Below are positions 22,090-58,923 of a stretch of 64,000 bases of DNA, piece by piece (the stretch's first letter is position 1; the number at the start of each line of letters is the position of its first letter). Location of the stretch: assembly GCA_965215275.1 (NCBI GenBank), contig OZ244044.1:1568001-1632000 (forward strand). Reading direction: 5' to 3'. The notes under the pieces are model-generated. The model ran no database searches. It was not told the origin of the DNA and was given only the letters and a program-made list of their open reading frames with translations. The DNA comes from Thermodesulfobacteriota bacterium (GTDB taxonomy: Bacteria > Desulfobacterota_D > UBA1144 > Nemesobacterales > JAJCZQ01). The position numbers were made by a program, and so were the translations under genes.

Positions 22090-22115
22090 TTTGTCAACTT
22101 AACTATATAATTCCC
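22090..22115 (-). repeat. Orphan terminal inverted repeat of the TnpB-cassette family
   Basis: TTTGTCAACTTAACTATATAATTCCC, 23/26 identical to the TIR at 57979-58004. Confidence 0.65.
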
Positions 22116-42510: not shown

Positions 42511-45500
42511 ATGGTCATAGCTGCAAAAGGAGAGAGCAGATTAGAAGACCAGTTATCTGAATGCAGAGATATCAGTGCAGACACGGAAGACCCGTTATAC
42601 GGATGTCAGTGGCATCTGAAGAACACGGGGCAGTTTATTTATTCAGGAAAGGAAATAACGGCAGGAGAAGATATAAACATAGAGGGTGTGTGGAACGAAG
42701 ACGTATACGGTTCTGGAATTAACGTAGCAGTTGTAAGTGATGGTATCGACCTTTCACATGAGGACCTTTCTGCAAACGTTGATCCTGGACTGAGCTATAA
42801 CTATTCCGAGAGCGTTGACCTTTCCGACAGTTCATCCTTTACCGGAACACGAGCAGCAGGAGTAATAGCAGCTACTGGATATAACGGACTGGGAGTAAGA
42901 GGAGTTGCACCCGGTGCAAGTATATACAGTAATGAGTTAACTGGTGATAACAGGGAAGTTGCCGCAGGGGATGCAATGGTCCGTAATAAGGAAATAACAG
43001 CAGTATCTGTTAACGACTGGGGACCGGAAGATAAATATTCTCTTGCTCAGGCATCAACTGTCTGGGAAGAAGGATTGGAACTTGGAATAAGTAAAGGGTT
43101 TTATGGTAAAGGTGTGTTTTACGTCCGGGGAGCAGGGGACGGGCATGAAAGAGGAGATCAGGCTAATTTTAATGAATATTCCAGCTATTACGGAGTAACA
43201 GCCGTTTGTTCAACGGACGGTTATGGAAAAAAGAGTATTTTTTCAGAAGAGGGAGTAAATCTATGGGTATGTGCACCTGGTTCTGATATTGTAACCACAG
43301 ATAACAACAACGATTACGTTGTAACTTCCGGAACTGTTCTATCAGCTTCACAGGCTGGAGGAGTGGCAGCACTGCTGAGAGAGATAAATGTAGATCTGAG
43401 CTGGAGGGATATAAAGCTTATACTTGCGGGTTCAGCACGGCAGAACGATTTTTCTGACGTGAGCTGGGAGACTGGAGCTGTTAAATACGGTTCTGATACG
43501 GAAAGATATAAATATAATCCTAAGTATGGTTTTGGCGTGGTAGACGCAGAAGCAGCCGCAGAACTTGCAAAAAGCTGGAAAGGCGTTGGTGAAATGAGGA
43601 CCGTTACAGCTTCTTCAGATAATGAACTGACAATCCCTGATAGAGATGGAGAAGCAGATGGGGTCCTTGTCTCCAGACTTATGATACCGGACCTGGAGGT
43701 AACATTTACGGAATTCGTTGAGGTAGAACTTGTTTTTTCTCATGACCGCTTACAGGACCTTGATATACAGATAACCTCTCCTTCCGGAACAACGTCTGAG
43801 CTTGTAAGGGAGTTTTCAGTTGAGGAAGAAGACGCTGAGATCAGTTATGTAAGAAGAACACATCGTTTCGGGTCGGCTAAGCACCTCGGAGAAGACCCTT
43901 CCGGAGAATGGATTCTCAATATAGCCGATACTGCTTCCGGAGATGAAGAAGATGGAGAAGAAGTGGGGACCTTACACTCCTGGAGCATTAAGGTATACGG
44001 GAATAAGAAGGGGGATACCGCTGCAGACCTTGCTAAGGAGATAACTCCTAAGGCTTTAACCTTCGGTGGTGCGACAGTTCAGGATCAGGTGTACAGAGCA
44101 GGAACTCAGATAACACCATTAGTACTGCCTGAGGCGACCGGGGCAGAAGGAATAACGTACAGTATAAGACCTGCTCCACCTGCTGGACTGAATTATAACG
44201 ATAATACCAGAACTATAAGCGGAACACCAACTGCTTCGCAGTCTAATATCCGTTATCAACATATTGCCAGAGACAAAGATGGGAAGACGACGAGTGTAGC
44301 GTTCCATATCAGGGTAAGGTTCCGTAACTCCACAACGCCGAGTTTCAGAGAGACTATCCCGGATCAGAACTATGTAACGGGGAGATCAATAACGCCACTG
44401 GTGTTCCCTCGTGCAACAGGAGGGGATGGTCAGCTAAGTTACAGTTTTGACGGCACTTTAAATAACTTACCAGGTGGATTGAGCCTTACCAGCAATCCGT
44501 TTAGGATAATTGGAACACCAAGTAATGCGGGGACAAGTACCTGGCAATGGACCGCTACTGACGCAGACGGGGATACGGCTACACTTGAGTTCAGGATAAG
44601 GATAAGAGCTGCAGCTGACGTTCCGGACTTCGGCGATACGCAGGTGAGGGATCAGACGTTTGGTAACGGCAGAACAATAAGTCTGGGAATGCCTGTGGCA
44701 GATGGAGGTAATGGAACTTTAAATTACAGTATAACTCCTGCCTTGCCTAATGGATTGACCTATACCAGTAACAACCGACAGATAAATGGAACGATCAACG
44801 TCTCTGGACAACTTCCTGTAACTACTACTTATACCTACAAGGTAACTGACTCTGATACAGATACTGATGACGGTGATTCTGATACTCTGACTTTCTCTTT
44901 TACGATAGAAGCTAATTCAGTGCCAAACTTCGGCAGTCAGACGGTAGAGGGTCAGGTGTATGCTACTGGGCAACAGGTAACGTTGACTCTGCCTCTTGCA
45001 ACGGGAGGGAATGGAAATTTAAGTTACAGTATAATCGGTGCTCTACCTTCCGGATTGAGTTTTAACCCAACCACCCGGGAGATAAGTGGAACACCAACTA
45101 CCGTAAAGTCTGCGAGGACTTATACATATAGAGCAAGGGACGATGATCTGGACACGGATACTATCACCTTCTCTATTACGATAACGGCCCTGTCCTTTGA
45201 CGGGCAGGTACCTTCTTCTCCTGTTTTGTACTCAGCAGAAAGACGAATAACACCAGTAACGCTGCCTGTGGCAACGGGAGGAGGTACTGCTCCATATACT
45301 TACAGTTTAACCCCTCGTTTACCTGATGGATTGAGTTTTAACCCAACCACCCGGGTTATAAGTGGAACACCGACTGCTGCGACGCCTTTGAATACTTATA
45401 CGTATACCGTTACAGACAGTAACGGAGTTACGGTGGAGATGACGTTCGATATTGCTGTAAGAGCACACTTTTCAGGCCTTACGATACAAAGTAAGGTGTA

Positions 45501-46488
45501 TACAGTCGGGACGGCAGTAATGGAAATGCTGCCTGAGGCAACTGGACATAATGGAACGGTAACATACAGTTTAACTCCTGAATTACCTTCCGGACTGGAT
45601 TTTACCCCTGCTACACGAGTGATAAGCGGAAGACCGACTGCTACACAGAATACGAGGCTTTATACGTATACTGATACTACCGGTACAGGTGGACCTGCTC
45701 GAACTTTGGTGTTCCATATCACGGTAAGAACAGAACCCAACACAATGCCGACCTTCGGCAGTGAAACTATAGATAATAAGGTGTATATAAACGGAGAAGC
45801 AGTAAATGAAACACTGCCTGAAGCAACGTCAGGGAATGCACCATTAACTTACAGCTTAAGTACTAATTTAGCAGGAGGTCGGCTAATTAACGGATTAAGT
45901 TTTAACAGAAACACCAGAGTATTAAGTGGAACACCTGATCTCAATCCAGTTCCACTTCCTGTAACTGTGAATCATACATATAAAGTAAGAGACAATGATG
46001 GAGATACAGCAGAGATAACGTTCAGTATAACAGTAGAAGAAGACAGCGAACCGGACTTCAGCGGTGTGACAATACCAGATCGTGTGTACACGGGTAGAAC
46101 AATAGAGCTGCCAGAGGCAGCGGGAGGGAATTTACCGGTTACATACAGTATAACGCCTGGTTTACCAGCGGGATTGAGTTTTAACGGTAGTACCAGAAGG
46201 ATAAGTGGGACACCCAGGAGTGCATCGACAAGAACTTACACGTATACGGCAACGGACAGGAATGGAGATATGGACACATTGGATTTCATGTTCAGTGTAG
46301 AGGTTACTTCTTCTCCACCACCACCAAATCCAAGACCAGCACCAGATACTGAAGCTGGTGGAGGAGGATGTGCGGTCTCAGAGCAGAGCAGCGTTGCTTC
46401 TGATATTCTCGGAGTAATGACATGTCTGATACTTATACCTGTATCTGTAACGATAAGAAGAAAGAGAAGATCTCATATAAAGACGTAG
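42511..46488 (+). CDS. Paralogous degenerate S8/kexin-like + P domain + about 8 Ig-like repeats + sorting tail
   Basis: N- and C-termini nearly identical to 11915-14983; GGGGCAVSEQ...RRKRR tail. Confidence 0.85.
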   Translation: MVIAAKGESRLEDQLSECRDISADTEDPLYGCQWHLKNTGQFIYSGKEITAGEDINIEGVWNEDVYGSGINVAVVSDGIDLSHEDLSANVDPGLSYNYSESVDLSDSSSFTGTRAAGVIAATGYNGLGVRGVAPGASIYSNELTGDNREVAAGDAMVRNKEITAVSVNDWGPEDKYSLAQASTVWEEGLELGISKGFYGKGVFYVRGAGDGHERGDQANFNEYSSYYGVTAVCSTDGYGKKSIFSEEGVNLWVCAPGSDIVTTDNNNDYVVTSGTVLSASQAGGVAALLREINVDLSWRDIKLILAGSARQNDFSDVSWETGAVKYGSDTERYKYNPKYGFGVVDAEAAAELAKSWKGVGEMRTVTASSDNELTIPDRDGEADGVLVSRLMIPDLEVTFTEFVEVELVFSHDRLQDLDIQITSPSGTTSELVREFSVEEEDAEISYVRRTHRFGSAKHLGEDPSGEWILNIADTASGDEEDGEEVGTLHSWSIKVYGNKKGDTAADLAKEITPKALTFGGATVQDQVYRAGTQITPLVLPEATGAEGITYSIRPAPPAGLNYNDNTRTISGTPTASQSNIRYQHIARDKDGKTTSVAFHIRVRFRNSTTPSFRETIPDQNYVTGRSITPLVFPRATGGDGQLSYSFDGTLNNLPGGLSLTSNPFRIIGTPSNAGTSTWQWTATDADGDTATLEFRIRIRAAADVPDFGDTQVRDQTFGNGRTISLGMPVADGGNGTLNYSITPALPNGLTYTSNNRQINGTINVSGQLPVTTTYTYKVTDSDTDTDDGDSDTLTFSFTIEANSVPNFGSQTVEGQVYATGQQVTLTLPLATGGNGNLSYSIIGALPSGLSFNPTTREISGTPTTVKSARTYTYRARDDDLDTDTITFSITITALSFDGQVPSSPVLYSAERRITPVTLPVATGGGTAPYTYSLTPRLPDGLSFNPTTRVISGTPTAATPLNTYTYTVTDSNGVTVEMTFDIAVRAHFSGLTIQSKVYTVGTAVMEMLPEATGHNGTVTYSLTPELPSGLDFTPATRVISGRPTATQNTRLYTYTDTTGTGGPARTLVFHITVRTEPNTMPTFGSETIDNKVYINGEAVNETLPEATSGNAPLTYSLSTNLAGGRLINGLSFNRNTRVLSGTPDLNPVPLPVTVNHTYKVRDNDGDTAEITFSITVEEDSEPDFSGVTIPDRVYTGRTIELPEAAGGNLPVTYSITPGLPAGLSFNGSTRRISGTPRSASTRTYTYTATDRNGDMDTLDFMFSVEVTSSPPPPNPRPAPDTEAGGGGCAVSEQSSVASDILGVMTCLILIPVSVTIRRKRRSHIKT

Positions 46489-47792: not shown

Positions 47793-48443
47793 CTAATCCA
47801 TGGTGTAATCGGTTTTCTTTTTACCAAATCTTCTTTCCAGTTCTGTGTTTATGTCCTGCGGACCCAGTTCCAGCTCAGAAAGCAGTACAAGTGAGTGAAA
47901 CCATAGATCGGTGACCTCGTATATAAGTTCTTTTTTGCTCCTGTTCTTGCCTGCTATTATTGTCTCTCCTGCTTCTTCTCCGATCTTTTTCAATATTTTA
48001 TCCATACCGTCACTGAAGAGGCTGCTTACGTAAGATCCCTTGACGGGGTTCTTCTTTCTATCCTCTATGACCTTAAAAACTTTATATATTGCAGGGTCGG
48101 TAAACACGGGAGACAGTTCCTTAGTGGAGTCTGTCCGGGTGTGAAAACAGCTTTGTTCTCCTGTGTGACAGGCCACCCTTGTCTGATCGACCATGATCAG
48201 CAACGTGTCCTTATCACAATCTATGTAGATCTGTCTGACTTTCTGAACGTTCCCTGACTCTTCACCCTTTTTCCATATTTTTTTTCTGGATCTGCTCCAA
48301 AAATGCGTAAAACCCGTTTCAATGGTCAGTTTAACTGTCTCAGCGTTTGCATAAGCGAGCATGAGAACCTGTCCAGTTGTATTATCCTGTATTATTGTGG
48401 GGATTAGCCCATCTTTGTTGAATTTCAGTTCGTTAAGGTCCAT
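47793..48443 (-). CDS. hisIE: Bifunctional phosphoribosyl-AMP cyclohydrolase / phosphoribosyl-ATP pyrophosphatase
   Basis: [35 protein letters not shown]. Confidence 0.96.
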
Positions 48444-48479
48444 GCCTTCTCCCTTTATAAAATGAATACTTTTAAGATA

Positions 48480-48611
48480 GGGAATTATATACTGAATTAG
48501 ACATGATCAGCATACTGTTCTGCAAGCAGGTTTCCTCTAACCCTGTAACCTTTTGGCACTAACGAGTACTCAGCTTGCATCGGGAGACTTTCGTCCTTAT
48601 TCCCACCCGAT
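48480..48611 (-). ncRNA. Predicted omegaRNA scaffold of E1
   Basis: ATCGGG/CCCGAT, GAC-GAAA-GTC and TGCAAGC/GCTTGCA stems shared with E2 and E3. Confidence 0.6.
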
Positions 48612-49954
48612 AAAGAGGATAAACCTCTTTTAAGCATGTTCTTCGCAGCATTTGTATCAGCATGTTCCGTATGAGCACAGAAAATACCGACGCATTTAAA
48701 CAGCTCTCCTTTTCTATTTTCTTTATCTATCCATCCACAACGAGAACAGGTTTGTGACGTGTATTGAGCAGGTATCTTATGCAACTTGCCACCAGTGCTT
48801 AAAACCTTGTAATCAAGCTGATTAACAACCTTACCCAATTGCTGTTCTATTAAGGACCTGTTTAATCCTGATTTCTGCTTAATATTCTTACCAGGATCTT
48901 CCACAGTTCCTTTTGCAGATTTAGTCATATTCTTTAATTTTAAATCTTCCGCCATAATGAAATTATGCTTCCTTGAAAGTTCAGTAGTTATTTCGTGTAT
49001 CATGTAATGTTCTCTTTCTGCGACCCTTGCATATTCTTTTGCAAGTATTTGAACTTTCTTCTTTCTGCTGGCAGAACCTTTTACAGCTCTTGAAAGAATC
49101 TTTTGCTTTCTTTTAAGTTCTTTTCTATCCGTTTTTATACCTTTATAAAATGATCCATCTGATAAAGCGATCCTGTTATTTACTCCAAGATCTATCCCTA
49201 TCGGTCTGTCCATACCTCTGTCAACCCCAACTATCGCTTCATAAATAAACTGAATTTCTACTCTTAAAGCCGTTTGCACTATCCTTATATATCTTGTTCC
49301 TTCAGGTATCCTTCCCTTGAAGGAAACCCTGCCAATTCCTTTTATATACAACGAAGTCCTTCTTTCCTGCTTTCTGATCTTGCTTAACAGACGAGTTTCA
49401 AACGACCTGACCTTTCTGGAACTCTTCTTAAATCTCGGATGTCCACCTCGACTGAAAAACCTGTCATACGCACTATCTAATCTTTTTAAAACGGACAATT
49501 GAATCTGACGAAGAACTTTATTAAAAACAGGTTCTTCTTCTCTTATTTCAGTTAATGATTTTGATTGATCCTCATAACTGACCGACTTCTTTTTTAAATC
49601 TTCTTCAGGTAACATCTTCCAGTTTAAAGGATCATCACAAGGTTGAATGTCACTTTTAACACTATTCAACGCTTTATAAACAATGTTCAAATTCTTAACG
49701 GTATTTCCCTTATTATAAGAAATACCCGACTTCCAGTGTGGATAGAAATAAACCCTTAATCTATCTTCTGACAAACCCCATCTCTTCAGCTTCTTGTATT
49801 TTTCATATGCTTCCTTTCTTTCTTCTAAAGCACAGTTATACAAATAAGTTAATTGATCTAAAGTCCTGTCCAGACCTTCATGAGCAGATATATTCAACCC
49901 AGCCGCTCTACGGTCTGTTCTCATCTGTTTTATAATTTTAGTTTCACTATCCAT
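48497..49954 (-). CDS. tnpB: RNA-guided endonuclease TnpB (485 aa)
   Basis: RuvC motifs GIDLG, AEDLK, HADTNAA; zinc finger CSRC...CVGIFC. Confidence 0.93.
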
Positions 49955-50122
49955 CGTCTACAACACAACAACCGATCTATTAACTGCTTTCAAATTCGTC
50001 TCCTGTCTAATTAAGTATATAATTCCCTTAAGATATTATAATTGGGAATAATATACTTTAGTAAACAAAAGACAGGCAAATAGCTTTGATAGTGCTGTAA
50101 AATTAGGGAATTATATATAGAT

Positions 50123-51577
50123 ATGGATAGTGAAGGAAGTGTGATCAGAAAGACGAGAGTAGACCTCAGGGCGGTTAAGTTGGATCCGTCTGCTCATAAG
50201 AAACTGGAATCTATGTTAAACCAGCTTACCTATCTTTATAACCGAGCTCGTGAAGAAAGGATAAGATCATATGATAAATATGAGAAACTGATGAAATGGG
50301 GTTTATCAGAAAAGAGATTTAAGACGTATTTCTATCCCCACTGGAAGTCTGGACTTTCTTATAATAAAGGTAATACAGTTAAACATATAGACAAGGTATA
50401 TATAGCTCTTAACAGGGTTAGAAGTGAAGTCCGACCTTGTAACGACCCGTTAAACTGGAGAGAGTTATCAGAAAAAGAAATAGGAAAGAAGTCGATCAGT
50501 TACGAAGATCAGGCAAGATCACTGACGGAAATAAGGAACGACCTTTTACTGTCTGATGAGTTTAGTAAGGTTGACGCTCAAGCGCAACAGCGGACGTTAC
50601 AAAGACTGGATAAGGCTTATAAAGAATATCTAAAAGGGATACGTGGTCGTCCGAGATATAAGAACAGTAGCAGAAAGATAAAAAGTTTTGAAACTTACCA
50701 ATGGAGTAGAGTTAAGAAACAAGACAGAAGAACTTCCTTGTCCGTAAAAGGAGCAGGCAGGATGAGTTTCAAAGGCAGGATACCGGAAGGAACTAAATAC
50801 ATAAGGATAGTAAGAACTGCTTTAAGAGTAGAGATACAGTTTGTATATGAAACAGTTGCAGGAGTGGACAGAGGGTCAGACAGACCGATAGGGATAGATC
50901 TCGGAGTGAAGAACAGAATTACCTTATCGGATGGAACTTTCTATAAAGGAACAGAAATAGACAGGAAGGAACTTAAAAGAAAGCAAAGAGCAATAAGCAG
51001 AGCTGAAAAAGGTTCTAACAACAGAAACAAGAAGAAAACAGCTTATGCCAAAGAACGTGCAAGGACCACTGAAAGGGAACATAATAAAATACATGAATTA
51101 ACTACAGGGATAGTAAAGGGTCATGGTAATCATTTTATAGTAGAAGATCTGAAGTTAAAGAACATGACAAAGTCCGCTAAGGGGACCGTGAAAGATCCTG
51201 GCAAGAAAGTAAAGCAGAAATCGGGATTGAACAGGTCTATACAGGAGCAGCAATTGGGAAAGGTCATTAGTCAGCTTACTTACAAGGTTGAGAGCACTGG
51301 AGGTAAGATAATAAGAGTTCCATCCCGATACACAAGCCAGACCTGTTCTGCATGCGGATATGCAGCTAAAAAGAACAGAAAAGGAGAGTTATTTAAGTGC
51401 ATGTCCTGTGGTTATAAAGGCCATGCTGACTTAAACGCAGCTAATAACGTTCTCAAAAGAGGTTTATTCTTTTTGTCGGGTGGGAATAAGGACGAGAGTC
51501 TCCCGGTGCAAGCTGGGAACGTTATATCAAAAGAGAACGGGGTCAGAGGGACTCTGCTTGCAGAACAGTATATTTAG
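50123..51577 (+). CDS. tnpB: RNA-guided endonuclease TnpB (484 aa)
   Basis: GIDLG, VEDLK, HADLNAA; CSAC...CMSC. Confidence 0.93.
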   Translation: MDSEGSVIRKTRVDLRAVKLDPSAHKKLESMLNQLTYLYNRAREERIRSYDKYEKLMKWGLSEKRFKTYFYPHWKSGLSYNKGNTVKHIDKVYIALNRVRSEVRPCNDPLNWRELSEKEIGKKSISYEDQARSLTEIRNDLLLSDEFSKVDAQAQQRTLQRLDKAYKEYLKGIRGRPRYKNSSRKIKSFETYQWSRVKKQDRRTSLSVKGAGRMSFKGRIPEGTKYIRIVRTALRVEIQFVYETVAGVDRGSDRPIGIDLGVKNRITLSDGTFYKGTEIDRKELKRKQRAISRAEKGSNNRNKKKTAYAKERARTTEREHNKIHELTTGIVKGHGNHFIVEDLKLKNMTKSAKGTVKDPGKKVKQKSGLNRSIQEQQLGKVISQLTYKVESTGGKIIRVPSRYTSQTCSACGYAAKKNRKGELFKCMSCGYKGHADLNAANNVLKRGLFFLSGGNKDESLPVQAGNVISKENGVRGTLLAEQYI

Positions 51578-51604
51578 TATTTGTTTACTAAATGTATAAT
51601 TCCC
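51475..51604 (+). ncRNA. Predicted omegaRNA scaffold of E2
   Basis: TCGGG-TGGGAATAAG-GACGAGAGTC-TCCCGG, TGCAAGC...GCTTGCA, GAACAGTAT, terminal hairpin. Confidence 0.6.
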
Positions 51605-51656
51605 TTATAGTTTGTGTATCATATAAAAGAAATTAAATTATATTTCAGGAGTCGTT

Positions 51657-51866
51657 ATGGCAAGAGTAACCATAGAAGATTGTTTGGAAAAAGTGGAAAA
51701 CCGCTTTGCACTTTCGGTAGCAGCTATGAAAAGGGCAAAACAGGTGGTTAATGGTGCAATGCCTCTGGCATCGGAAAAAGATAATAAACACGTCGTTATT
51801 GCTCTCAGGGAGATAGCAGAAGGGAAAGTCAACGTGATCTATCCTGATGCACCTGGAAAATATTAG
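51657..51866 (+). CDS. rpoZ: RNA polymerase omega subunit
   Basis: [19 protein letters not shown]...ALREIAEG. Confidence 0.97.
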
Positions 51867-51890
51867 AGCTACTTACCTGATCTATATAAG

Positions 51891-53867
51891 ATGTACCTTC
51901 TAGGTATCGACACGGGCGGGACCTTTACCGACTTTGTGCTTTATGACGGAAAAGATTATAAGGTCCATAAGATCTCCTCAACGCCTGATGACCCTTCCAC
52001 GGCTATATGTGACGGGGTTAATTACTTCAATGAAGTTTCGTTTCGGTATCTGACCTTAGTTCATGGGACAACCGTTGCAACGAACACCCTCCTTGAACGA
52101 AAAGGTGCCAGGGTACTGCTGTTGACCACTAAGGGTTTTGAAGACGTTATTGAGATCGGCAGACAGAACCGCGGTAAACTATACGATCTTTTCTGGACGA
52201 AAAAACCTGCCTTAGTACCGAAACGGGACAGGATAGGTATATCCGAAAGGGTTAATTCCAAAGGTATGGTCTTAAAGGAATTAGACGGTGATGAAGTACG
52301 CACGCTTATGCAAAGTTCAAACTTTGAGGAATTTGAAGCGGTTGCCGTCTGCTTTATTAACTCTTACGTTAATCCTGTACATGAGATCAAAGTTCAGAAC
52401 GTTCTAAGTTCCCTGGATATCCCGGTTTCAATATCGTACGAGGTTATACCTGAATTCAGGGAATATGAACGAACTTCAACCACCGTGGTGAATTCATATC
52501 TCATTCCCAAGGTCAGGGGATATATGCATTCCCTGAACAAAAAACTAAAAGGGGCGGGTATTTACGTTATGCAGTCGAACGGAGGCGTTATAACCCCCGA
52601 GCAGGCGGCAAATGAACCGGTAAAGGTAATTGCCTCGGGTCCGGCTGGCGGAGTGGTCGGGGCTTACAAGATCGCCCGTCAGACAGGGATCGATAAGGTA
52701 ATAACTTACGACATGGGGGGAACTTCCACGGACCTTTCCGTGTGTGATGGTGAATTGAAGTTTACAACGGAGACCGTAATTGATGATGTCCCGATAAAGA
52801 TCCCAATGATGGACATTCTTACCATCGGATCGGGTGGAGGGTCAATTGCGTACGCGGATTCCGGAGGGGTATTGAAAGTAGGGCCTGAAAGTGCAGGTGC
52901 AGACCCGGGACCAGCGTGCTATGGAAAGGGAAAATATCCTACGGTAACCGATGCAAACCTTATGCTTGGAAGAATGCAGGCAGAGAATTTTCTGGGTGGC
53001 AGGATGAAGGTCGACCCCAAGCTGTCAGAAAGTTCCATCAAGACCTTAAACAACGGTTTTGGAATTGATCCCCTTAAACTGGCCGAGATGATAATAAAAG
53101 TTGCAAATTCCAACATGGAACGTGCTGTTAAGGTCATTTCGGTCGAGAAAGGATACGACCCCAGGGAGTTCTCGCTCATCAGTTTCGGTGGGGCAGGGGG
53201 ATTACATGCCTGCGAATTGGCAAGGAGCATCGGCCTTAAAAGAGTGATATTTCCGGTTAACCCGGGAGTTCTTTCTGCGCTGGGTATGCTGTTTGCCGAT
53301 TCGTTCAAAGATTACAGTAAAGGGTTTTTTCTGAACTGTAAGGACGCGGACCTCAGCGTACTTGAACTCCAGTATGGTGAACTGGAGCAGAAAGCGGTCA
53401 GGGATATTCAAGGCGTGGAACAAAACGCTTCATGTTCAAAGGAAGATACAGAGTTTTTAAGGTCAATGGACGTCCGATATAAAAGACAGTCACATGAGCT
53501 GACAATTCCGTACAGCCGTGACTTCATAGATGATTTTCATAAAAAGCATCTCAAAAGGTACGGTTTTAACGGCGTTGATAACGCTGTTGAAATAGTGGCG
53601 TTAAGGGTCCGTGCCGTGATCAGCCGTTCCGTGTTCGAGCTGCCTGAGCTGAAAACAAAAAGATCGGAAATTACAGGAACTGGTTCTCTGGTCTATATAA
53701 ATGGTGAATGGACCGATATAGTTCGTTATGACAGGAGCCGGTTTTATAACGGCTTTGTTTTTAAAGGGCCTTCGATCATTAACGAGGATACGTCAACTAT
53801 TTTCATACCTGAAGGTTTCAGATGCGTTGTGGACCGGTTTGGAAATATAGTTTCAGAAGGGTGTTGA
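51891..53867 (+). CDS. Hydantoinase/oxoprolinase subunit A
   Basis: IDTGGTFTD, HGTTVATN, SGPAGG, DMGGTSTD, GPESAGADPGPACYG. Confidence 0.92.
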   Translation: MYLLGIDTGGTFTDFVLYDGKDYKVHKISSTPDDPSTAICDGVNYFNEVSFRYLTLVHGTTVATNTLLERKGARVLLLTTKGFEDVIEIGRQNRGKLYDLFWTKKPALVPKRDRIGISERVNSKGMVLKELDGDEVRTLMQSSNFEEFEAVAVCFINSYVNPVHEIKVQNVLSSLDIPVSISYEVIPEFREYERTSTTVVNSYLIPKVRGYMHSLNKKLKGAGIYVMQSNGGVITPEQAANEPVKVIASGPAGGVVGAYKIARQTGIDKVITYDMGGTSTDLSVCDGELKFTTETVIDDVPIKIPMMDILTIGSGGGSIAYADSGGVLKVGPESAGADPGPACYGKGKYPTVTDANLMLGRMQAENFLGGRMKVDPKLSESSIKTLNNGFGIDPLKLAEMIIKVANSNMERAVKVISVEKGYDPREFSLISFGGAGGLHACELARSIGLKRVIFPVNPGVLSALGMLFADSFKDYSKGFFLNCKDADLSVLELQYGELEQKAVRDIQGVEQNASCSKEDTEFLRSMDVRYKRQSHELTIPYSRDFIDDFHKKHLKRYGFNGVDNAVEIVALRVRAVISRSVFELPELKTKRSEITGTGSLVYINGEWTDIVRYDRSRFYNGFVFKGPSIINEDTSTIFIPEGFRCVVDRFGNIVSEGC

Positions 53868-53878
53868 GGTTTACCATA

Positions 53879-55186
53879 ATGTCCAAAAATATCATTATAG
53901 GTGGTGGTGTGACGGGGCTTGCCGCGGGTCTGACCTCAGACGTTAAGATATATGAAGCAAAACAGGTTCCCGGAGGTATCTGCTCGTCGTATTATATCCG
54001 TCCCGGTGATAAGCGACCTGAGGCTGCACAACCTGAAGATCAAGAAGCCTACAGGTTCGAGTTAGGTGGTGGACACTGGATCTTTGGTGGAAAGCCCAAA
54101 GTATTGGATTTTATAAGATCACTGACCCCGGTAAAAGAATATACAAGAAAGTCCTCGGTTTACTTCCCGGATACGGAGTTGTATGTTCCGTATCCAATTC
54201 AGAACAATTTGAGATACTTAGGTAAAGACGTGGCAGACAGGGTGTTAGCGGAGATCAGGAACTCTACTGATATGATACCAGACACTATGGAGCAGTGGCT
54301 TGAAAAAAGCTTCGGAAAGACACTTGTAAAGATGTTCTTTGGTCCGTTCCATGAGCTGTATACCGCGGGGCTCTGGACAAGGATCGCACCCCAGGACGCT
54401 TATAAATCTCCCGTGAACGTTGAAGCGGTTAAAAAAGGTGCTTATGGAGACAGGACGGACGCTGTGGGTTACAACGTTAAGTATCTGTACCCTTCAGAGG
54501 GACTTGATGTCCTTGCAGGTAAAATGGCGGGAAGATGTAATATCTCATACGACAAGAAGGTTGAGGAAATAAATCTGGATAAAAAAGAAGTACTTTTTTC
54601 AGATGGGTCAGGAGACAGATACGATAGACTTTTATCAACTCTGCCGCTGAACAAGGCACTGGACTGTTCAGGTCTTACCGTTGATGAATACCGTGATGAC
54701 TACACCTCCGTCCTGGTCCTTAATATCGGTGCTACAAGAGGTGACAGATGTCCTGATGATCACTGGATATACGTGCCTGACAGCAGGTCCAAGTTCCATA
54801 GAGTTGGTTTTTACAGTAACGTTGACAGTTCTTTCCTGCCATTATCGTCCAGAAAGGATATGGACAGGGTCAGTATTTATGTTGAAAGGGCATTTCCAAA
54901 CGGCAGGAAGCCCTCTGACAGTGAGATAAGTTCTTATTCCGGATCAGTAGTTGATGAGTTAAAGGACTGGAAGTTCATTGATGAAGCTGAGACCGTTCAT
55001 CCAACCTGGATAGAGGTTGCCTATACCTGGTCAAAGCCGGGTTCAAGCTGGAGAATGAAAGCATTGAACCTTCTTGCGAAGCAGAACGTCGTTCAGGCAG
55101 GCAGATACGGCAGGTGGAAGTTTCAGGGGATCGCGGAGTCCCTGGAAGATGGTTTTATGGCCGGTAATGATCATCTCTTGTCATGA
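53879..55186 (+). CDS. FAD-dependent oxidoreductase (protoporphyrinogen oxidase / UDP-galactopyranose mutase-like)
   Basis: IIGGGVTGL, GGHW, GRYGRWKF; likely ATG at 53879. Confidence 0.8.
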   Translation: MSKNIIIGGGVTGLAAGLTSDVKIYEAKQVPGGICSSYYIRPGDKRPEAAQPEDQEAYRFELGGGHWIFGGKPKVLDFIRSLTPVKEYTRKSSVYFPDTELYVPYPIQNNLRYLGKDVADRVLAEIRNSTDMIPDTMEQWLEKSFGKTLVKMFFGPFHELYTAGLWTRIAPQDAYKSPVNVEAVKKGAYGDRTDAVGYNVKYLYPSEGLDVLAGKMAGRCNISYDKKVEEINLDKKEVLFSDGSGDRYDRLLSTLPLNKALDCSGLTVDEYRDDYTSVLVLNIGATRGDRCPDDHWIYVPDSRSKFHRVGFYSNVDSSFLPLSSRKDMDRVSIYVERAFPNGRKPSDSEISSYSGSVVDELKDWKFIDEAETVHPTWIEVAYTWSKPGSSWRMKALNLLAKQNVVQAGRYGRWKFQGIAESLEDGFMAGNDHLLS

Positions 55187-55201
55187 AGTACTCAAGGCTG
55201 A

Positions 55202-56272
55202 TCAGCAAGCTATTATTTCCATCATTCGTTCAACCCTGTTCTTTAAGCTGTGGTCTTTCTTTATTCTTTTATATGAAGCCATGGCTATCTCTTCTCTTTC
55301 TTTTTCGTTCTTTAGGTAGTATTGCACTTTATCTCTCAGTTCTTTTTTATCTTTAAAAGTTATGATCTCTTCTCCTATCCTGAAATAATCCCCTATACTT
55401 TTTTTATCGTCCACGATCTGGAACGTTTTTGACGCGGGGATCTCAAAGAGTCGGTAATTCCCCCCGCTGACCTCAAATTCCCGATGGATATTGACCCCTA
55501 TTTTAGCTGACTTCATCACTTTTATCAGATCGTCACCATATACCACGCCTCTGTAGTTTGATCCAAGGGGCGTTTGATGATCACTGAAGTTCCAGCTCCA
55601 TATACCCAGTCCCAGGTCGGAGATATGTTCTAAAAAATTTTTTCTCCTTTCATCGTACATTCCCGAGAAACAGATATTGACCTTGTTGTCTTTAATAAAG
55701 TCACTGTCAGGATTAATTGAGTCATAGTAGGAAACGCTGCATCCAAGTGGTAATGTCTGCGTGTTTGTGATATTAAGTTCCTCTTCGTAGTATTTAACGT
55801 ATGATCTGTCATAAATAAAAGTGTGGTCGCAGTTTTTGAGTATTTTGTGTACGCCAGGCGACACTTTTGACGGATGTAATCCGAGCCATGTCACCACTTT
55901 TATCCCTTCTTTTTTAAGGTTTTTTATTAAACTTGATAAGTTATAGGTATTTATAAGATATATGAACAGTACGTCGGGGTTGAAGTCCTTTACCTCTTCT
56001 GAGATCTGCTGTGACAGATACAGATCATTTGGGTAATCAGCGATGAACCCGAAGTGTTTTCTGAATGTAAGATACTCTTCACTAAAGCTGTTTCTTATCG
56101 TCCTGTCTTTTCTTAAATGGTCTAACAGGACTGGCATCTTTGTATCGGTGGTTTGCAGTACCTTTACTTCATGTCCCAGACCTGCTGCCTCCCGGGACAG
56201 ATGAACCATATATGTACTTATAAAGAACGTTGTATCGTCAAACGTGATGGGAGCCGCGAAAAGAATTTTCAT
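55202..56272 (-). CDS. CgeB-like GT-B glycosyltransferase
   Basis: NYRLFEIPA, YFRIGEEI, YYLKNEKEREEIA, HSLKNR. Confidence 0.8.
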   Translation of the reverse strand: MKILFAAPITFDDTTFFISTYMVHLSREAAGLGHEVKVLQTTDTKMPVLLDHLRKDRTIRNSFSEEYLTFRKHFGFIADYPNDLYLSQQISEEVKDFNPDVLFIYLINTYNLSSLIKNLKKEGIKVVTWLGLHPSKVSPGVHKILKNCDHTFIYDRSYVKYYEEELNITNTQTLPLGCSVSYYDSINPDSDFIKDNKVNICFSGMYDERRKNFLEHISDLGLGIWSWNFSDHQTPLGSNYRGVVYGDDLIKVMKSAKIGVNIHREFEVSGGNYRLFEIPASKTFQIVDDKKSIGDYFRIGEEIITFKDKKELRDKVQYYLKNEKEREEIAMASYKRIKKDHSLKNRVERMMEIIAC

Positions 56273-56457
56273 TAATTAACGTTGATCTCTTTCAGCTTTT
56301 TTTTTGTAAACAGGAAATACAGTCTTTCAAAAGCAACTAACAGATGGATGGTTATAAAAAAAGAGAGTGATAAGATGAACTTAAAACCATGTATGTATTT
56401 ATTTTTAGTGCTGCGACCTGAACGGTTCATATCCTTCATTATATGAATAGCAGACAA
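56272..56457 (-). pseudogene. Probable 3' remnant of a polysaccharide-locus gene
   Basis: Short ORF coupled to the CgeB-like gene and cut upstream by the element remnant. Confidence 0.4.
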
Positions 56458-56474
56458 GATCTTTTATAATATTA

Positions 56475-56636
56475 GGGAATAATATACTTTAGTAAACAAA
56501 AGACAAGCAAATAGCTTTGATAATACTGTAAAATTGGGGAATTATATATAAATATGAGAAACTGATAAAATGGGGTTTGTCAGAAAAAAAGGTTTAAGAC
56601 GTATTTCTACCCACACTGGAAGTCTGGGATTTCTTA
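56475..56636 (+). mobile_element. Decayed, internally deleted left-end copy of element E2
   Basis: Close match to 50044-50119 joined to the tnpB segment at about 50276-50360; no right TIR. Confidence 0.85.
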
Positions 56637-56686
56637 CCATATAGCTGTTAAGGTTAAAATTCTCATTGCAATGCTTTGATAATTAA

Positions 56687-56816
56687 GGGAATTATAAAGG
56701 AAAGTTGACAAACTTACCCATACTGTTCTGAGTGCAGAGTTCCTCTATCCCTGTTCTCTTTTGATCTGATACTCTTAGCACTCATCGGGAGTATTTCTAC
56801 CTTATTCCCACCCGAT
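56687..56816 (-). ncRNA. Predicted omegaRNA scaffold of E3
   Basis: GTA-GAAA-TAC and TGAGTGC/GCACTCA compensatory variants of the E1/E2 stems. Confidence 0.6.
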
Positions 56817-57937
56817 ATGAAGTCTCCTTCATTAAGAGTATTGATATTTTTACCTGCATTTATATCCCTGTTTTCTGAATAACCGCAATATATACAGTTA
56901 AATACTCTTTCAGACAGAGGCAGTTTTGGATTTATCTTTCCGCATTCAGAACAGGCTCTTGTTGTATAATGAGCTTTAACTAAAACCAGCTTGCCTCCAG
57001 CTATCTCGGCTTTGTAGTCAAGTTGATGTTTGATCTTACCCCATTGCTGTTCTGTTATGGATTTAGCAAGATGATGGTTCTTTACCATTCCTTGTATATT
57101 CAAATCCTCTAATTTTATATGATTACACTTCTTTACTATATTGGTAGTCATTCTGTGTATAGCGTTATTTTCACGATCGGTAGTTCGTTCCCATTCCTTT
57201 GCTAACAATAAAACTTTCTTCTTTCTGCTGTCAGAACCTTTTACCGCTCTTGAAACAATTCTCTGCTTTCTTTTCAGTTCCTTCCTGTCTATCCTGATAC
57301 CGGGAACTTTAGTTCCATCTGAAAAAGCTAATCTGTTTGTTATTCCAAGATCTATCCCTATGGAATTATCCAAAGGTCTCTTCTTCTCATTTGTAAACTC
57401 ACACAGAAACTGGAGCTTAATTCTTAACGAACTCCTGATTATTCTTATTATTGTTTTAGGTTGCTTTAATACAACTCCGTCAGGTATAGAACCTTTGAAG
57501 GATAATCTGCCTATTCCCTTAACAGTTAAATATGTTCTTCTGCCTATCTTCTCAATGTTTTTATAATTGTTTGTTTCAAAACTCCTTACAGGTCTGTTTG
57601 GACCTTTATATTTAGGTCTGCCAACCTTCCTTACCTTCTTGCCTGCTTTCTTGTTCCTTAAATAGTTCAAATACGGTCTATATGCATTATCCAGTCTTTC
57701 CAGAACGCTTCTTTGAGCTGTAACATTAAACTTTTCAAATTCCTTGTCTTGCTCTCGGACCTCAGTTAGTTCGTTAAACTGTTCGTATTTAGAGATAGTT
57801 CTTCCATACCAATCCCAGGATTTTAACCTATGGTACAAGGCACTGTTATACAGATCGGTAAGCTGATTTAAGAATTTATCCAGCCTTTTATGAAAACCAC
57901 TATCTGCCTTTACAGTTCTTGTAATCGTTCTAACCAT
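56714..57937 (-). CDS. tnpB: RNA-guided endonuclease TnpB (407 aa)
   Basis: GIDLG, LEDLN, NRDINAG; CSEC...CIYC. Confidence 0.94.
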   Translation of the reverse strand: MVRTITRTVKADSGFHKRLDKFLNQLTDLYNSALYHRLKSWDWYGRTISKYEQFNELTEVREQDKEFEKFNVTAQRSVLERLDNAYRPYLNYLRNKKAGKKVRKVGRPKYKGPNRPVRSFETNNYKNIEKIGRRTYLTVKGIGRLSFKGSIPDGVVLKQPKTIIRIIRSSLRIKLQFLCEFTNEKKRPLDNSIGIDLGITNRLAFSDGTKVPGIRIDRKELKRKQRIVSRAVKGSDSRKKKVLLLAKEWERTTDRENNAIHRMTTNIVKKCNHIKLEDLNIQGMVKNHHLAKSITEQQWGKIKHQLDYKAEIAGGKLVLVKAHYTTRACSECGKINPKLPLSERVFNCIYCGYSENRDINAGKNINTLNEGDFISGGNKVEILPMSAKSIRSKENRDRGTLHSEQYG

Positions 57938-58008
57938 TTAATAACATTACCTTTTTATATTCTGTTTGTCAATTTATTTTTGTCAACTTTTCTTTATAAT
58001 TCCCATAA

Positions 58009-58923
58009 TTAACAGTTTCTGGGTTCAAAACCGAGCAGCAGCCTGAAGCTCTCATACACCCGAACGTAATTAAGTAAAACACGAATAATAACAATTTTTA
58101 ATTTGTTACCGTTTCTTTTGATTTTTGGACTTACATAATTGTGATTTTTTAATGGTTTCCGGATATATGTGACAGGGAGTAAATTCGATAAGGTTAGACG
58201 AAACCAGAATAATGATGAATATCCCCTTTTTTTATAATAAAGATATTCTCCCCCGGTAATCCTTAAATTTTTTCTTATTAAGTCCTTTAAAGTATTATGT
58301 GCAGGATGCTTTACAATCACGTTTCTTCCATAAATGATCTTGGAGCCTGTGATAATAGCCCTGTCTCCCCATTCTCTGTCGCCGCCGCTTCTGAATGAAC
58401 CATCAAAAATTCCAACGTCTGATAGCGTGGATTTAGAGGTAAATAAATTTGCTGTTACAGAAAAATTTAACTTGTTAATAAATCTCTCCTGGTTGAACGC
58501 AAACAGCATTTCATATTGTTCAACTGCGTTCAGATGGTCCTTGTTTTTATATGTTAATTCGATCCTGCCACCAACAACGCCATAGTAGTTGAGTATTTTT
58601 AAATTGTTTACTCCCGTTTCTATCCAGTTCGGGTAGGGTATGCAATCTGAATCAGTGAAGGCAATAATACTTCCTTTTGCTTGTTGTAATCCTTTGTTTC
58701 TGGCGGCATAGGAACCGCTTTTTTGTTCTTTAAGCAGGATTATCTTGTATAATGATTTTAACTTGAGCAGTTTTTTCCAGTGAAATTCGCTTGAATCATT
58801 ATCAACAACTATTACTTCATACAGTCTTTTATCATAACTTTGATCGTTAAGTGACTTTAGGCACAGACCTAATCTGTCAGAGTCGTTCAAATGTGGAATT
58901 ATTACTGAAACAAATTTCTTCAT
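58009..58923 (-). CDS. GT2 glycosyltransferase
   Basis: VSVIIP, VVDNDS, AARNKG, FTDSDC. Confidence 0.9.
   Translation of the reverse strand: MKKFVSVIIPHLNDSDRLGLCLKSLNDQSYDKRLYEVIVVDNDSSEFHWKKLLKLKSLYKIILLKEQKSGSYAARNKGLQQAKGSIIAFTDSDCIPYPNWIETGVNNLKILNYYGVVGGRIELTYKNKDHLNAVEQYEMLFAFNQERFINKLNFSVTANLFTSKSTLSDVGIFDGSFRSGGDREWGDRAIITGSKIIYGRNVIVKHPAHNTLKDLIRKNLRITGGEYLYYKKRGYSSLFWFRLTLSNLLPVTYIRKPLKNHNYVSPKIKRNGNKLKIVIIRVLLNYVRVYESFRLLLGFEPRNC

Follow-up and report, generated by a model that had tools for sequence, protein, structure and literature searches.

TnpB nucleases are carried by IS200/IS605 elements such as ISDra2 and by IS607 elements, families that have neither terminal inverted repeats (TIRs) nor duplications of the target site (TSDs) (PMC13565253). 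Altae-Tran et al. (2023, PMC10691335) have moreover described six DDE-associated TnpB branches (DDE-1 to DDE-6) with inverted repeats, together with solo TnpBs bearing the same ends, and the general idea that TnpB resides in prokaryotic DDE/TIR elements is thus already published. In this study we focus on a 64,000-nucleotide stretch of Thermodesulfobacteriota DNA (contig OZ244044.1, positions 1,568,001 to 1,632,000; hereafter the window), part of a complete 1.99-Mb genome called G000 here. It holds three elements, E1, E2 and E3, which are almost certainly IS1595-type cassettes carrying tnpB alone. Relatives of one host protein nearby carry the labels Thermodesulfobacteriota, Deltaproteobacteria and Ca. 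Dadabacteria, and the host is probably of the Dadabacteria type.

The IS1595 family is known to form passenger elements, such as MTnSag1 and tISCpe8, with TIRs of about 25 bp, 8-bp duplications and passenger genes (PMC5704250). In the main text of the 2023 paper IS1595 is not named, and it appears only as a row of the supplementary hidden Markov model list (PMC10691335). The partners of TnpB named in the available part of a 2026 review are ISL2, IS630 and IS1031 (PMC13565253). A literature search, outside which most subscription journals lay, found no paper on TnpB in IS1595 ends, nor on start-codon donation by such ends.

TnpB cassettes between IS1595-type ends

A first-pass annotation of the window, made from the sequence alone, had described three tnpB-only elements, each with its own TIR pair and an 8-bp TSD, and none encoding a transposase. 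All three were found at the positions claimed (Table 1), and each has one long open reading frame (ORF), which is tnpB. Their inverted ends all begin GGGAAT(T/A)ATA, and repeats of about 25 bp with an 8-bp TSD form the IS1595-type pattern. The end motif GGGAATWATA occurs 129 times in G000, against about 13 expected. Alignment of the two E2 repeats requires a 1-nt gap, with which they agree in 23 of 26 columns (by eye), as opposed to 15 of 24 ungapped. The ISNwi1 group of IS1595 has ends of the form 'ggnnatTAT' and a group-specific DDE spacing; the ends of E1-E3 fit this motif, and the three may belong to this group, a label whose source was not found in the literature searched.

Table 1. Coordinates of E1, E2 and E3 and of their parts in the window.
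Feature	Position	Strand	Remarks
E1 target duplication copy, right (3') end side	48472..48479	.	TTAAGATA, identical to 50028-50035
E1 whole element	48480-50027		1548 bp; TSD TTAAGATA on both sides, 8/8 match
E1 right TIR, 3' of tnpB	48480..48503	-	contains tnpB stop codon; predicted 3' part of omegaRNA scaffold
E1 predicted omegaRNA scaffold	48480..48631	-	hairpins; GGGAAU strand 48599-48604 predicted to pair with TIR tip
E1 tnpB	48497..49954	-	485 aa; RuvC D255/E336/D433; C4 zinc finger
E1 left TIR	50004..50027	-	23/24 identical to E1 right TIR
E1 TSD copy (50028-50035), then directly E2 TSD copy (50036-50043)	50028..50043	.	
E2 whole element	50044-51604		1561 bp; TSD TTATAATT/TTATAGTT, 7/8 match
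E2 left TIR	50044..50069	+	
E2 tnpB	50123..51577	+	484 aa; RuvC D259/E341/D436
E2 predicted omegaRNA scaffold, ends at right TIR tip	51455..51604	+	GGGAAU strand 51482-51487; fold z -2.46
E2 right TIR	51580-51604		
E2 right TSD copy	51605..51612	.	1 mismatch to 50036-50043; 44 bp upstream of rpoZ start (51657)
E3 TSD copy, right-end side	56679..56686	.	ATAATTAA
E3 whole element	56687-58004		1318 bp; TSD ATAATTAA on both sides, 8/8 match
E3 right TIR	56687-56712	-	E3 TIRs 25/26 identical
E3 right TIR and predicted omegaRNA scaffold	56687..56832	-	GGGAAU strand 56804-56809
E3 tnpB	56714..57937	-	407 aa; RuvC D196/E277/D358
E3 left TIR	57979..58004	-	24-nt type shared with L197 TIR (IS1595 transposase element, sister-genus genome)
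E3 TSD copy, left-end side	58005..58012	.	overlaps stop codon of upstream glycosyltransferase

The boundaries of E1 and E2 are fixed by an empty allele. The genes hisIE and rpoZ adjoin directly in all five relatives searched, and the hisIE-rpoZ spacer of G001, from the same genus, aligns to a model that keeps one copy of each TSD. Furthermore, in one 5.8-kb contig of sequencing run X7, from a close strain, 48479 is followed directly by 51605; the 3125 bp left out are exactly E1, 16 bp and E2, which means that the elements end at their TIR tips and that the 8-mers are true duplications. The empty site that the first-pass annotation had proposed to look for here therefore exists and is base-exact. 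An empty allele of E3 was not found, run X7 having no cover of that gene cluster and seven other runs no joint; contigs cannot show absence.

The three proteins score 167-201 bits against the NCBIfam profile guided_TnpB (cut-off 100) and match Pfam PF01385 and PF07282 (OrfB_IS605 and TNB domains), while their scores against the IS200_TnpB and IS607_TnpB profiles fall below cut-off. Like the TnpBs of ISDra2 and IS607, all three have a canonical RuvC D-E-D triad and a C4 zinc finger. The triad is kept in 125 of 126 proteins of the family by alignment count, and dN/dS lies between 0.10 and 0.30 in 12 of 12 tnpB pairs; judged from these sequences, tnpB is under purifying selection and the nuclease looks alive. 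The E1 and E2 proteins are 63% identical and that of E3 is 42-45% identical to them, in line with the earlier remark that E3 is far more divergent. An insert of about 70 residues near the N-terminus is found in E1/E2-type TnpB (49700-49935; 50160-50520), and E3 and the other aligned relatives are without it.

Which enzyme could move such cassettes? Neither an IS605 nor an IS607 transposase was found in G000: the serine recombinase profile PF00239 gave no match, and Y1 a single weak one of 26 bits, in a 274-aa ORF of the REP-associated type (by eye) that lies far from any tnpB. There are, on the other hand, 28 matches to DDE_Tnp_IS1595 in this genome, the IS1595 assignment resting also on NF033547, and some of the transposase elements bear ends matching those of the tnpB elements. 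IS1595 transposases are likewise present in 31 of 36 genomes of a sister genus, g10. A census of TIR pairs in G000 that required a TSD match of at least 7/8, and that misses E2 owing to its gap, gave 23 pairs, of which 11 enclose tnpB, 8 an IS1595 transposase and 4 other cargo. Eighteen full-length or near-full-length tnpB copies were examined in G000, and every one sits between IS1595-type ends, including two, X203 and X714, that are merely 26-30% identical to E1-E3. The left end of the X714 element shares 28 nt of identity with the left end of an IS1595 transposase element at C1:1519071, and the end type of E3 recurs on the transposase element L197 of a sister-genus genome. Thus a transposase with the same ends, which the annotation had said should be sought in the lineage, is present. 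From the shared ends and the footprint, E1-E3 are likely moved in trans by an IS1595 transposase whose gene lies elsewhere in the genome.

Two observations speak against this reading: 7 of the 18 copies lack a TSD of at least 7/8 (11 have one), and tnpB and transposase were never found between one TIR pair. Two fetched loci hold both genes; L172 consists of two separate elements, and L112 has a tnpB fragment outside the TIRs of a transposase element.

The arrangement resembles that of DDE-1 to DDE-6, in which tnpB lies between inverted repeats with its 3' end at most 250 bp from the element end and solo copies are proposed to move in trans (PMC10691335); one of these branches could be the IS1595-type TnpB branch. 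Unlike the transposase-paired DDE branches, no transposase in cis was found in the tnpB-IS1595 elements. E1-E3 share TIR and duplication sizes with MTnSag1 and tISCpe8 and differ from them in their cargo, a predicted RNA-guided nuclease, with the TIR predicted to be part of its RNA. They differ from IS200/IS605 and IS607 elements in having TIRs and TSDs, in being unaccompanied by a Y1 or serine transposase, and in a flank motif that is not fixed by the transposase target.

An ordinary IS605/IS1341 tnpB element might alternatively have jumped into an empty IS1595 miniature element, so that the TIRs are a separate shell. Such an event is a plausible origin, since transposase-free IS1595-type shells exist in G000 (the four with other cargo). 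However, no IS605-type end is seen in G000 between tnpB and the TIR tips, the gene starting 66-81 bp from the left tip and stopping 14-36 bp from the right one; the predicted scaffold pairs with the TIR itself, the arrangement is common to relatives in three other lineages, and IS605 tnpA was not found in G000. As a description of the present element the shell is already contradicted, and we consider it very improbable.

Other remains of the family were noted. A decayed E2-type element (56475..56660, plus strand) lies beside the right end of E3 and keeps a left end and an internally deleted 5' piece of tnpB; no right end of it was found. Solo GGGAATTATA-type ends lie on the minus strand at window positions 22115, 22295 and 46717, for which the pair search gave no partner. 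Five IS1595-type elements of G000 (C1 17470-21955, 1028600-1033127, 1897941-1900957, 1002026-1005187 and 1812584-1815955) have other passengers, named by eye as ABC ATPase and TPR proteins, DNA methylases, and a large S8-type peptidase resembling the one at window 42511-46488; in this G000 again resembles the MTnSag1 and tISCpe8 systems. In L067 and L164 the left TIR is of one subtype and the right TIR of another; such chimeric elements suggest recombination between copies.

A predicted guide RNA scaffold built on the right repeat

The omegaRNA scaffold is predicted, from covariation, to span the end of the tnpB reading frame up to the tip of the right TIR; this TIR would contribute the last hairpin's 3' strand and, through its UUCCC tip, one strand of a pseudoknot. 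A five-helix model applied to 35 right ends has 91% of its cells paired, against 36-46% in slid controls, and 12 of its 30 pairs changed on both sides, that is by compensatory changes. RNAalifold, unaided, returned the last hairpin with TIR bases 8-12 as its 3' strand and paired the internal GGGA with the UCCC tip. Moreover, the 5-nt 5' strand of this hairpin tracks the TIR subtype: 31 distinct combinations are 88% paired, versus 76% when shuffled, and 0 of 5000 shuffles were as high, a comparison that relatedness among copies inflates. In its first four bases the right TIR decays less than the left one (6 versus 22 of 70, and 10 versus 23 of 54). Left out of the counts on end decay, start codons, flank ORFs and TIR subtypes were L074, at a contig edge, and L071, L089, L150, L165, L168, L187 and L191, whose ends are unclear.

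Several results count against this model. The single-sequence fold of E3 is no better than shuffles (z -0.60); the pseudoknot core is nearly invariant, with one both-sided change among its four pairs in 35 rows, and protein coding and transposase binding could suffice to conserve it; and the +1 pair of the pseudoknot fails in all E1-E3-type copies. An Rfam search of 48000-58500 returned no omegaRNA family and one chance match.

Two other proposals were rejected and a third found no support. A fixed internal guide after a conserved TCAA falls within paired stems, and the TIR itself as guide has its bases paired inside the last hairpin; for outward or hybrid promoters in the TIR there is no support, with five promoter-like sites versus 8.4 in shuffles.

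The predicted layout agrees with what is known. As with ISDra2 and IS607, it overlaps the ORF end and shows hairpins and a predicted pseudoknot beside the guide. In IS607 omegaRNAs and in Fanzors, flanking or TSD bases enter the scaffold (PMC10711439); a pseudoknot adjacent to the guide and a flanking base drawn into the scaffold are both features of our prediction. The likeness is closest to the Fanzors of eukaryotic TIR transposons, in which a nuclease was captured by a DDE element and the TIR and part of the TSD belong to the RNA scaffold, as far as the available text describes them (PMC10711439, PMC13565253). Unlike Fanzors, E1-E3 have the RuvC-II glutamate in its canonical position, without the Fanzor shift, a variable 8-bp TSD in place of a fixed short one, and a pseudoknot that is predicted to be kept in the family.

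A one-sided flank motif and a probable homing model

The sister genus g10, from the same order, carries a Y type of the element (TnpB 40% identical) in 23 of 36 genomes and an X-like type also in 23 of 36. From it 58 Y and 56 X loci were fetched, which include 32 Y and 27 X distinct sites with a TSD match of at least 7/8. The flank-motif counts use distinct sites only, at this TSD threshold and in tnpB orientation. Among E3-type and Y sites taken together, 37 of 38 have a G at position -1 of the left TSD; the other end has it in 9 of 38, and the ends of transposase elements in 6 of 38. At E3 itself TG precedes the left TSD copy in element orientation, which is the predicted target-adjacent motif (TAM) side. 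X-type sites have an A at position +1 of the TSD in 27 of 27 cases (10 of 27 at the other end), and in 23 of 27 the bases at -2 and -1 are purines as well. All three E1/E2-type sites read A|T. This flank motif, at the left TSD border, is likely the TAM: TG|T in the E3 type and A|T in the E1/E2 type.

A full homing model, in which TnpB acts as a nuclease that re-copies the element into empty sites, is the reading we consider probable. It is drawn from sequence, and its transposition, cleavage and RNA are predicted or inferred. TnpB with its guide RNA would cut an element-free copy of the insertion site, and repair would copy the element back. The guide would begin within the first 1-2 bases of the right TSD and continue into host DNA, so that an empty site would offer a TAM and a full guide match and be cut. 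The filled site would be spared, the right junction being without a TAM and the left junction having at most 8 bases of match. Host selection would then retain insertions whose right end faces the next gene. The targets would likely be empty sister or incoming alleles, which makes this homing and not repair of excision.

Some points weigh against the homing model. If IS1595 elements excise replicatively, as they may (PMC5704250), empty donor sites would be few, a difficulty unless the targets are empty alleles of the sister chromosome or of other strains. The E1/E2-type motif rests on its three good-TSD sites, and the transposase control is small (19 elements), its TIR subtypes being only partly matched and its kin non-independent. 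Finally, near-identical young copies all bear the motif, so slow selection after insertion explains it poorly.

The motif might instead reflect the target preference of particular IS1595 transposases, together with selection for survivable insertions, TnpB being kept for another benefit without guarding the site. Right ends do face a co-oriented host gene in 15 of 18 G000 copies (E1 lies 36 bp before hisIE and E2 52 bp before rpoZ), many sister-genus sites are start codons or ribosome-binding sites that themselves supply TG, GG or GA, and the small size of the transposase control applies here too. We find this explanation unlikely, however, since transposase elements of the same TIR subtypes are without the motif (the 6 of 38 ends above), and the motif is one-sided and follows the TnpB clade, not the TIR core. 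Furthermore, where no long in-frame ORF follows, 27 of 28 sites keep the -1 G, although some of these still read NTG, and the motif is kept at both G000 copies located between convergent genes (C157 and C869).

A quite unlikely alternative is that TnpB joins integration itself: with omegaRNA and the element end, it would be the targeting subunit of a borrowed DDE transposase, steering it to TAM-bearing DNA, so that the motif is set at insertion. The TAM preference would then pick the IS1595 site, in the sister genus coinciding with start codons that the right end replaces in frame. An almost invariant motif (37 of 38; 27 of 27), while transposase elements persist without it, would fit this idea, as would its presence in C157 and C1441, which are young and near-identical (branch lengths of 0.002 and 0.005 in the tree). 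Yet the RuvC triad is intact in the TnpB of these elements, unlike in Cas12k, which is targeting-only. Moreover, TnpB is dispensable for IS200/IS605 transposition (PMC13565253). If true, such a system would be a minimal nuclease-steered, gene-sparing transposon that lives inside essential genes without splicing.

Start codons, relatives and meaning

In g10, TnpB-IS1595 elements lie just after host start codons and the right repeat supplies a new in-frame ATG, for instance at L051/L321 (alaS of G056), L189/L319 (leuS of G051), L050 (hemL) and L082 (argC). None of the 18 G000 copies, E1-E3 among them, donates a start codon. Where a Y element has an ATG 15 nt inside its right tip, it immediately follows the host ATG at 14 of 18 sites with a readable TSD (at least 5/8), and the donated frame runs for at least 100 codons in 16 of 24, against 1 and 1 for the other frames. 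For X elements with an ATG at -25 the insertion point mostly lies one base further on (9 of 27 show this offset and 2 an offset of zero), and the shifted frame is rescued in 17 of 35, against 4 and 5; an X subtype one base shorter is back to frame 0 in 5 of 9, against 0 and 1. Insertion offset and donated frame therefore shift together between subtypes. Y elements without that ATG have long frames in 3, 2 and 3 of 26, and in one TIR subtype all 14 right repeats, and none of the 14 left ones, have the ATG-forming bases.

All 11 hand-picked rescued ORFs match housekeeping families from within the first 40 residues, and rescued ORFs include hemL, nadD, argC, queA, murJ, alaS and leuS. G056 has no other alaS match and G051 no other leuS match, and two further g10 genomes each have the start uninterrupted. 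We infer that translation starts at the donated ATG; the right end would thereby supply an in-frame start codon to the interrupted gene. In three pairs of loci, L060/L085, L061/L180 and L024/L178, a Y-type and an X-type element inserted independently at the start of the same host gene, and in one such pair the insertions lie one base apart, each in its own rescuing frame. Like IStrons (PMC13521648), these TnpB elements spare the host gene that they interrupt; unlike IStrons as described in the available text, they have no intron, the sister-genus right end donating a new in-frame start codon.

A TnpB match was found in 8 of 40 relatives, and in 0 of the 4 in the same family. In a GTDB scan, 39 of 80 returned loci were examined. 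Fifteen are close relatives whose right ends are of this kind, and 4 of these have a TSD of at least 7/8; the fifteen belong to Latescibacterota, to Arenicellales and other Gammaproteobacteria, and to Aminicenantes; the remaining 24 have no TIR, and many end in IS605-like motifs by eye. Among the matches listed, metagenome and viral scans (alignment A4) gave distant TnpBs alone, with at least 12 and 5 loci and 25-37% identity. The first-pass annotation had proposed that TnpB was captured by IS1595-type elements, and this is supported: close relatives have TIR-type ends and the more distant TnpBs show no TIR, and none of the three observations listed as contrary to it (empty alleles bounded elsewhere than at the TIR tips, homologous tnpB genes with IS605/IS607-type ends and tnpA, a lineage without a matching IS1595 transposase) was made. 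In the tree, clade 1 (E1-E3, Y and close relatives) and clade 2 (X) are well separated. A single origin of both clades has an approximately unbiased (AU) test p of 0.0018 without L236 in the group and of 0.046 with it, the fairer test, and because this rejection is only marginal we do not claim two independent captures.

Three loci place related proteins beside repeats. At L236:3794-4800 (Dehalococcoidia, OY762443.1), a TnpB relative from clade 1 that lacks TIRs stands immediately before a CRISPR array of at least 17 repeats of 28 nt with a 61-nt period; it is a candidate TnpB-to-Cas12 transition. At L021:369-539 (G019), an X-clade TnpB is followed by three repeats at a 66-nt period, two of which end in TATTCCC like the TIR tip; such repeats occur in 1 of 6 genomes of that genus and were not in the metagenome scan among the matches listed. 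At L022:295-3200 (G027), a 597-aa TnpB-like protein adjoins a 16-repeat CRISPR array, probably a compact type V system.

Beyond the published idea of TnpB in DDE elements, the newer points are the location of TnpB on IS1595 ends, the predicted rebuilding of its guide RNA on the TIR, the likely TAM and, in relatives, frame-matched start-codon replacement. In section 6.2 of the 2026 review, the presence of TnpB in prokaryotic DDE transposons is described as uncommon and difficult to account for (PMC13565253). The present family has more than 120 copies whose boundaries are exact, with transposase-only elements as matched controls and one empty allele, and makes the role of TnpB there testable, through the predicted TAM of each clade, the predicted guide start and a candidate transposase. 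The guide RNA appears rebuilt on a foreign end, with an internal strand that changes in step with the TIR subtype, and the shortness of the predicted TAMs points to compact nucleases whose targeting is relaxed. In the sister genus, start-codon replacement would be a second route, beside IStron splicing, by which a TnpB element may spare essential genes.

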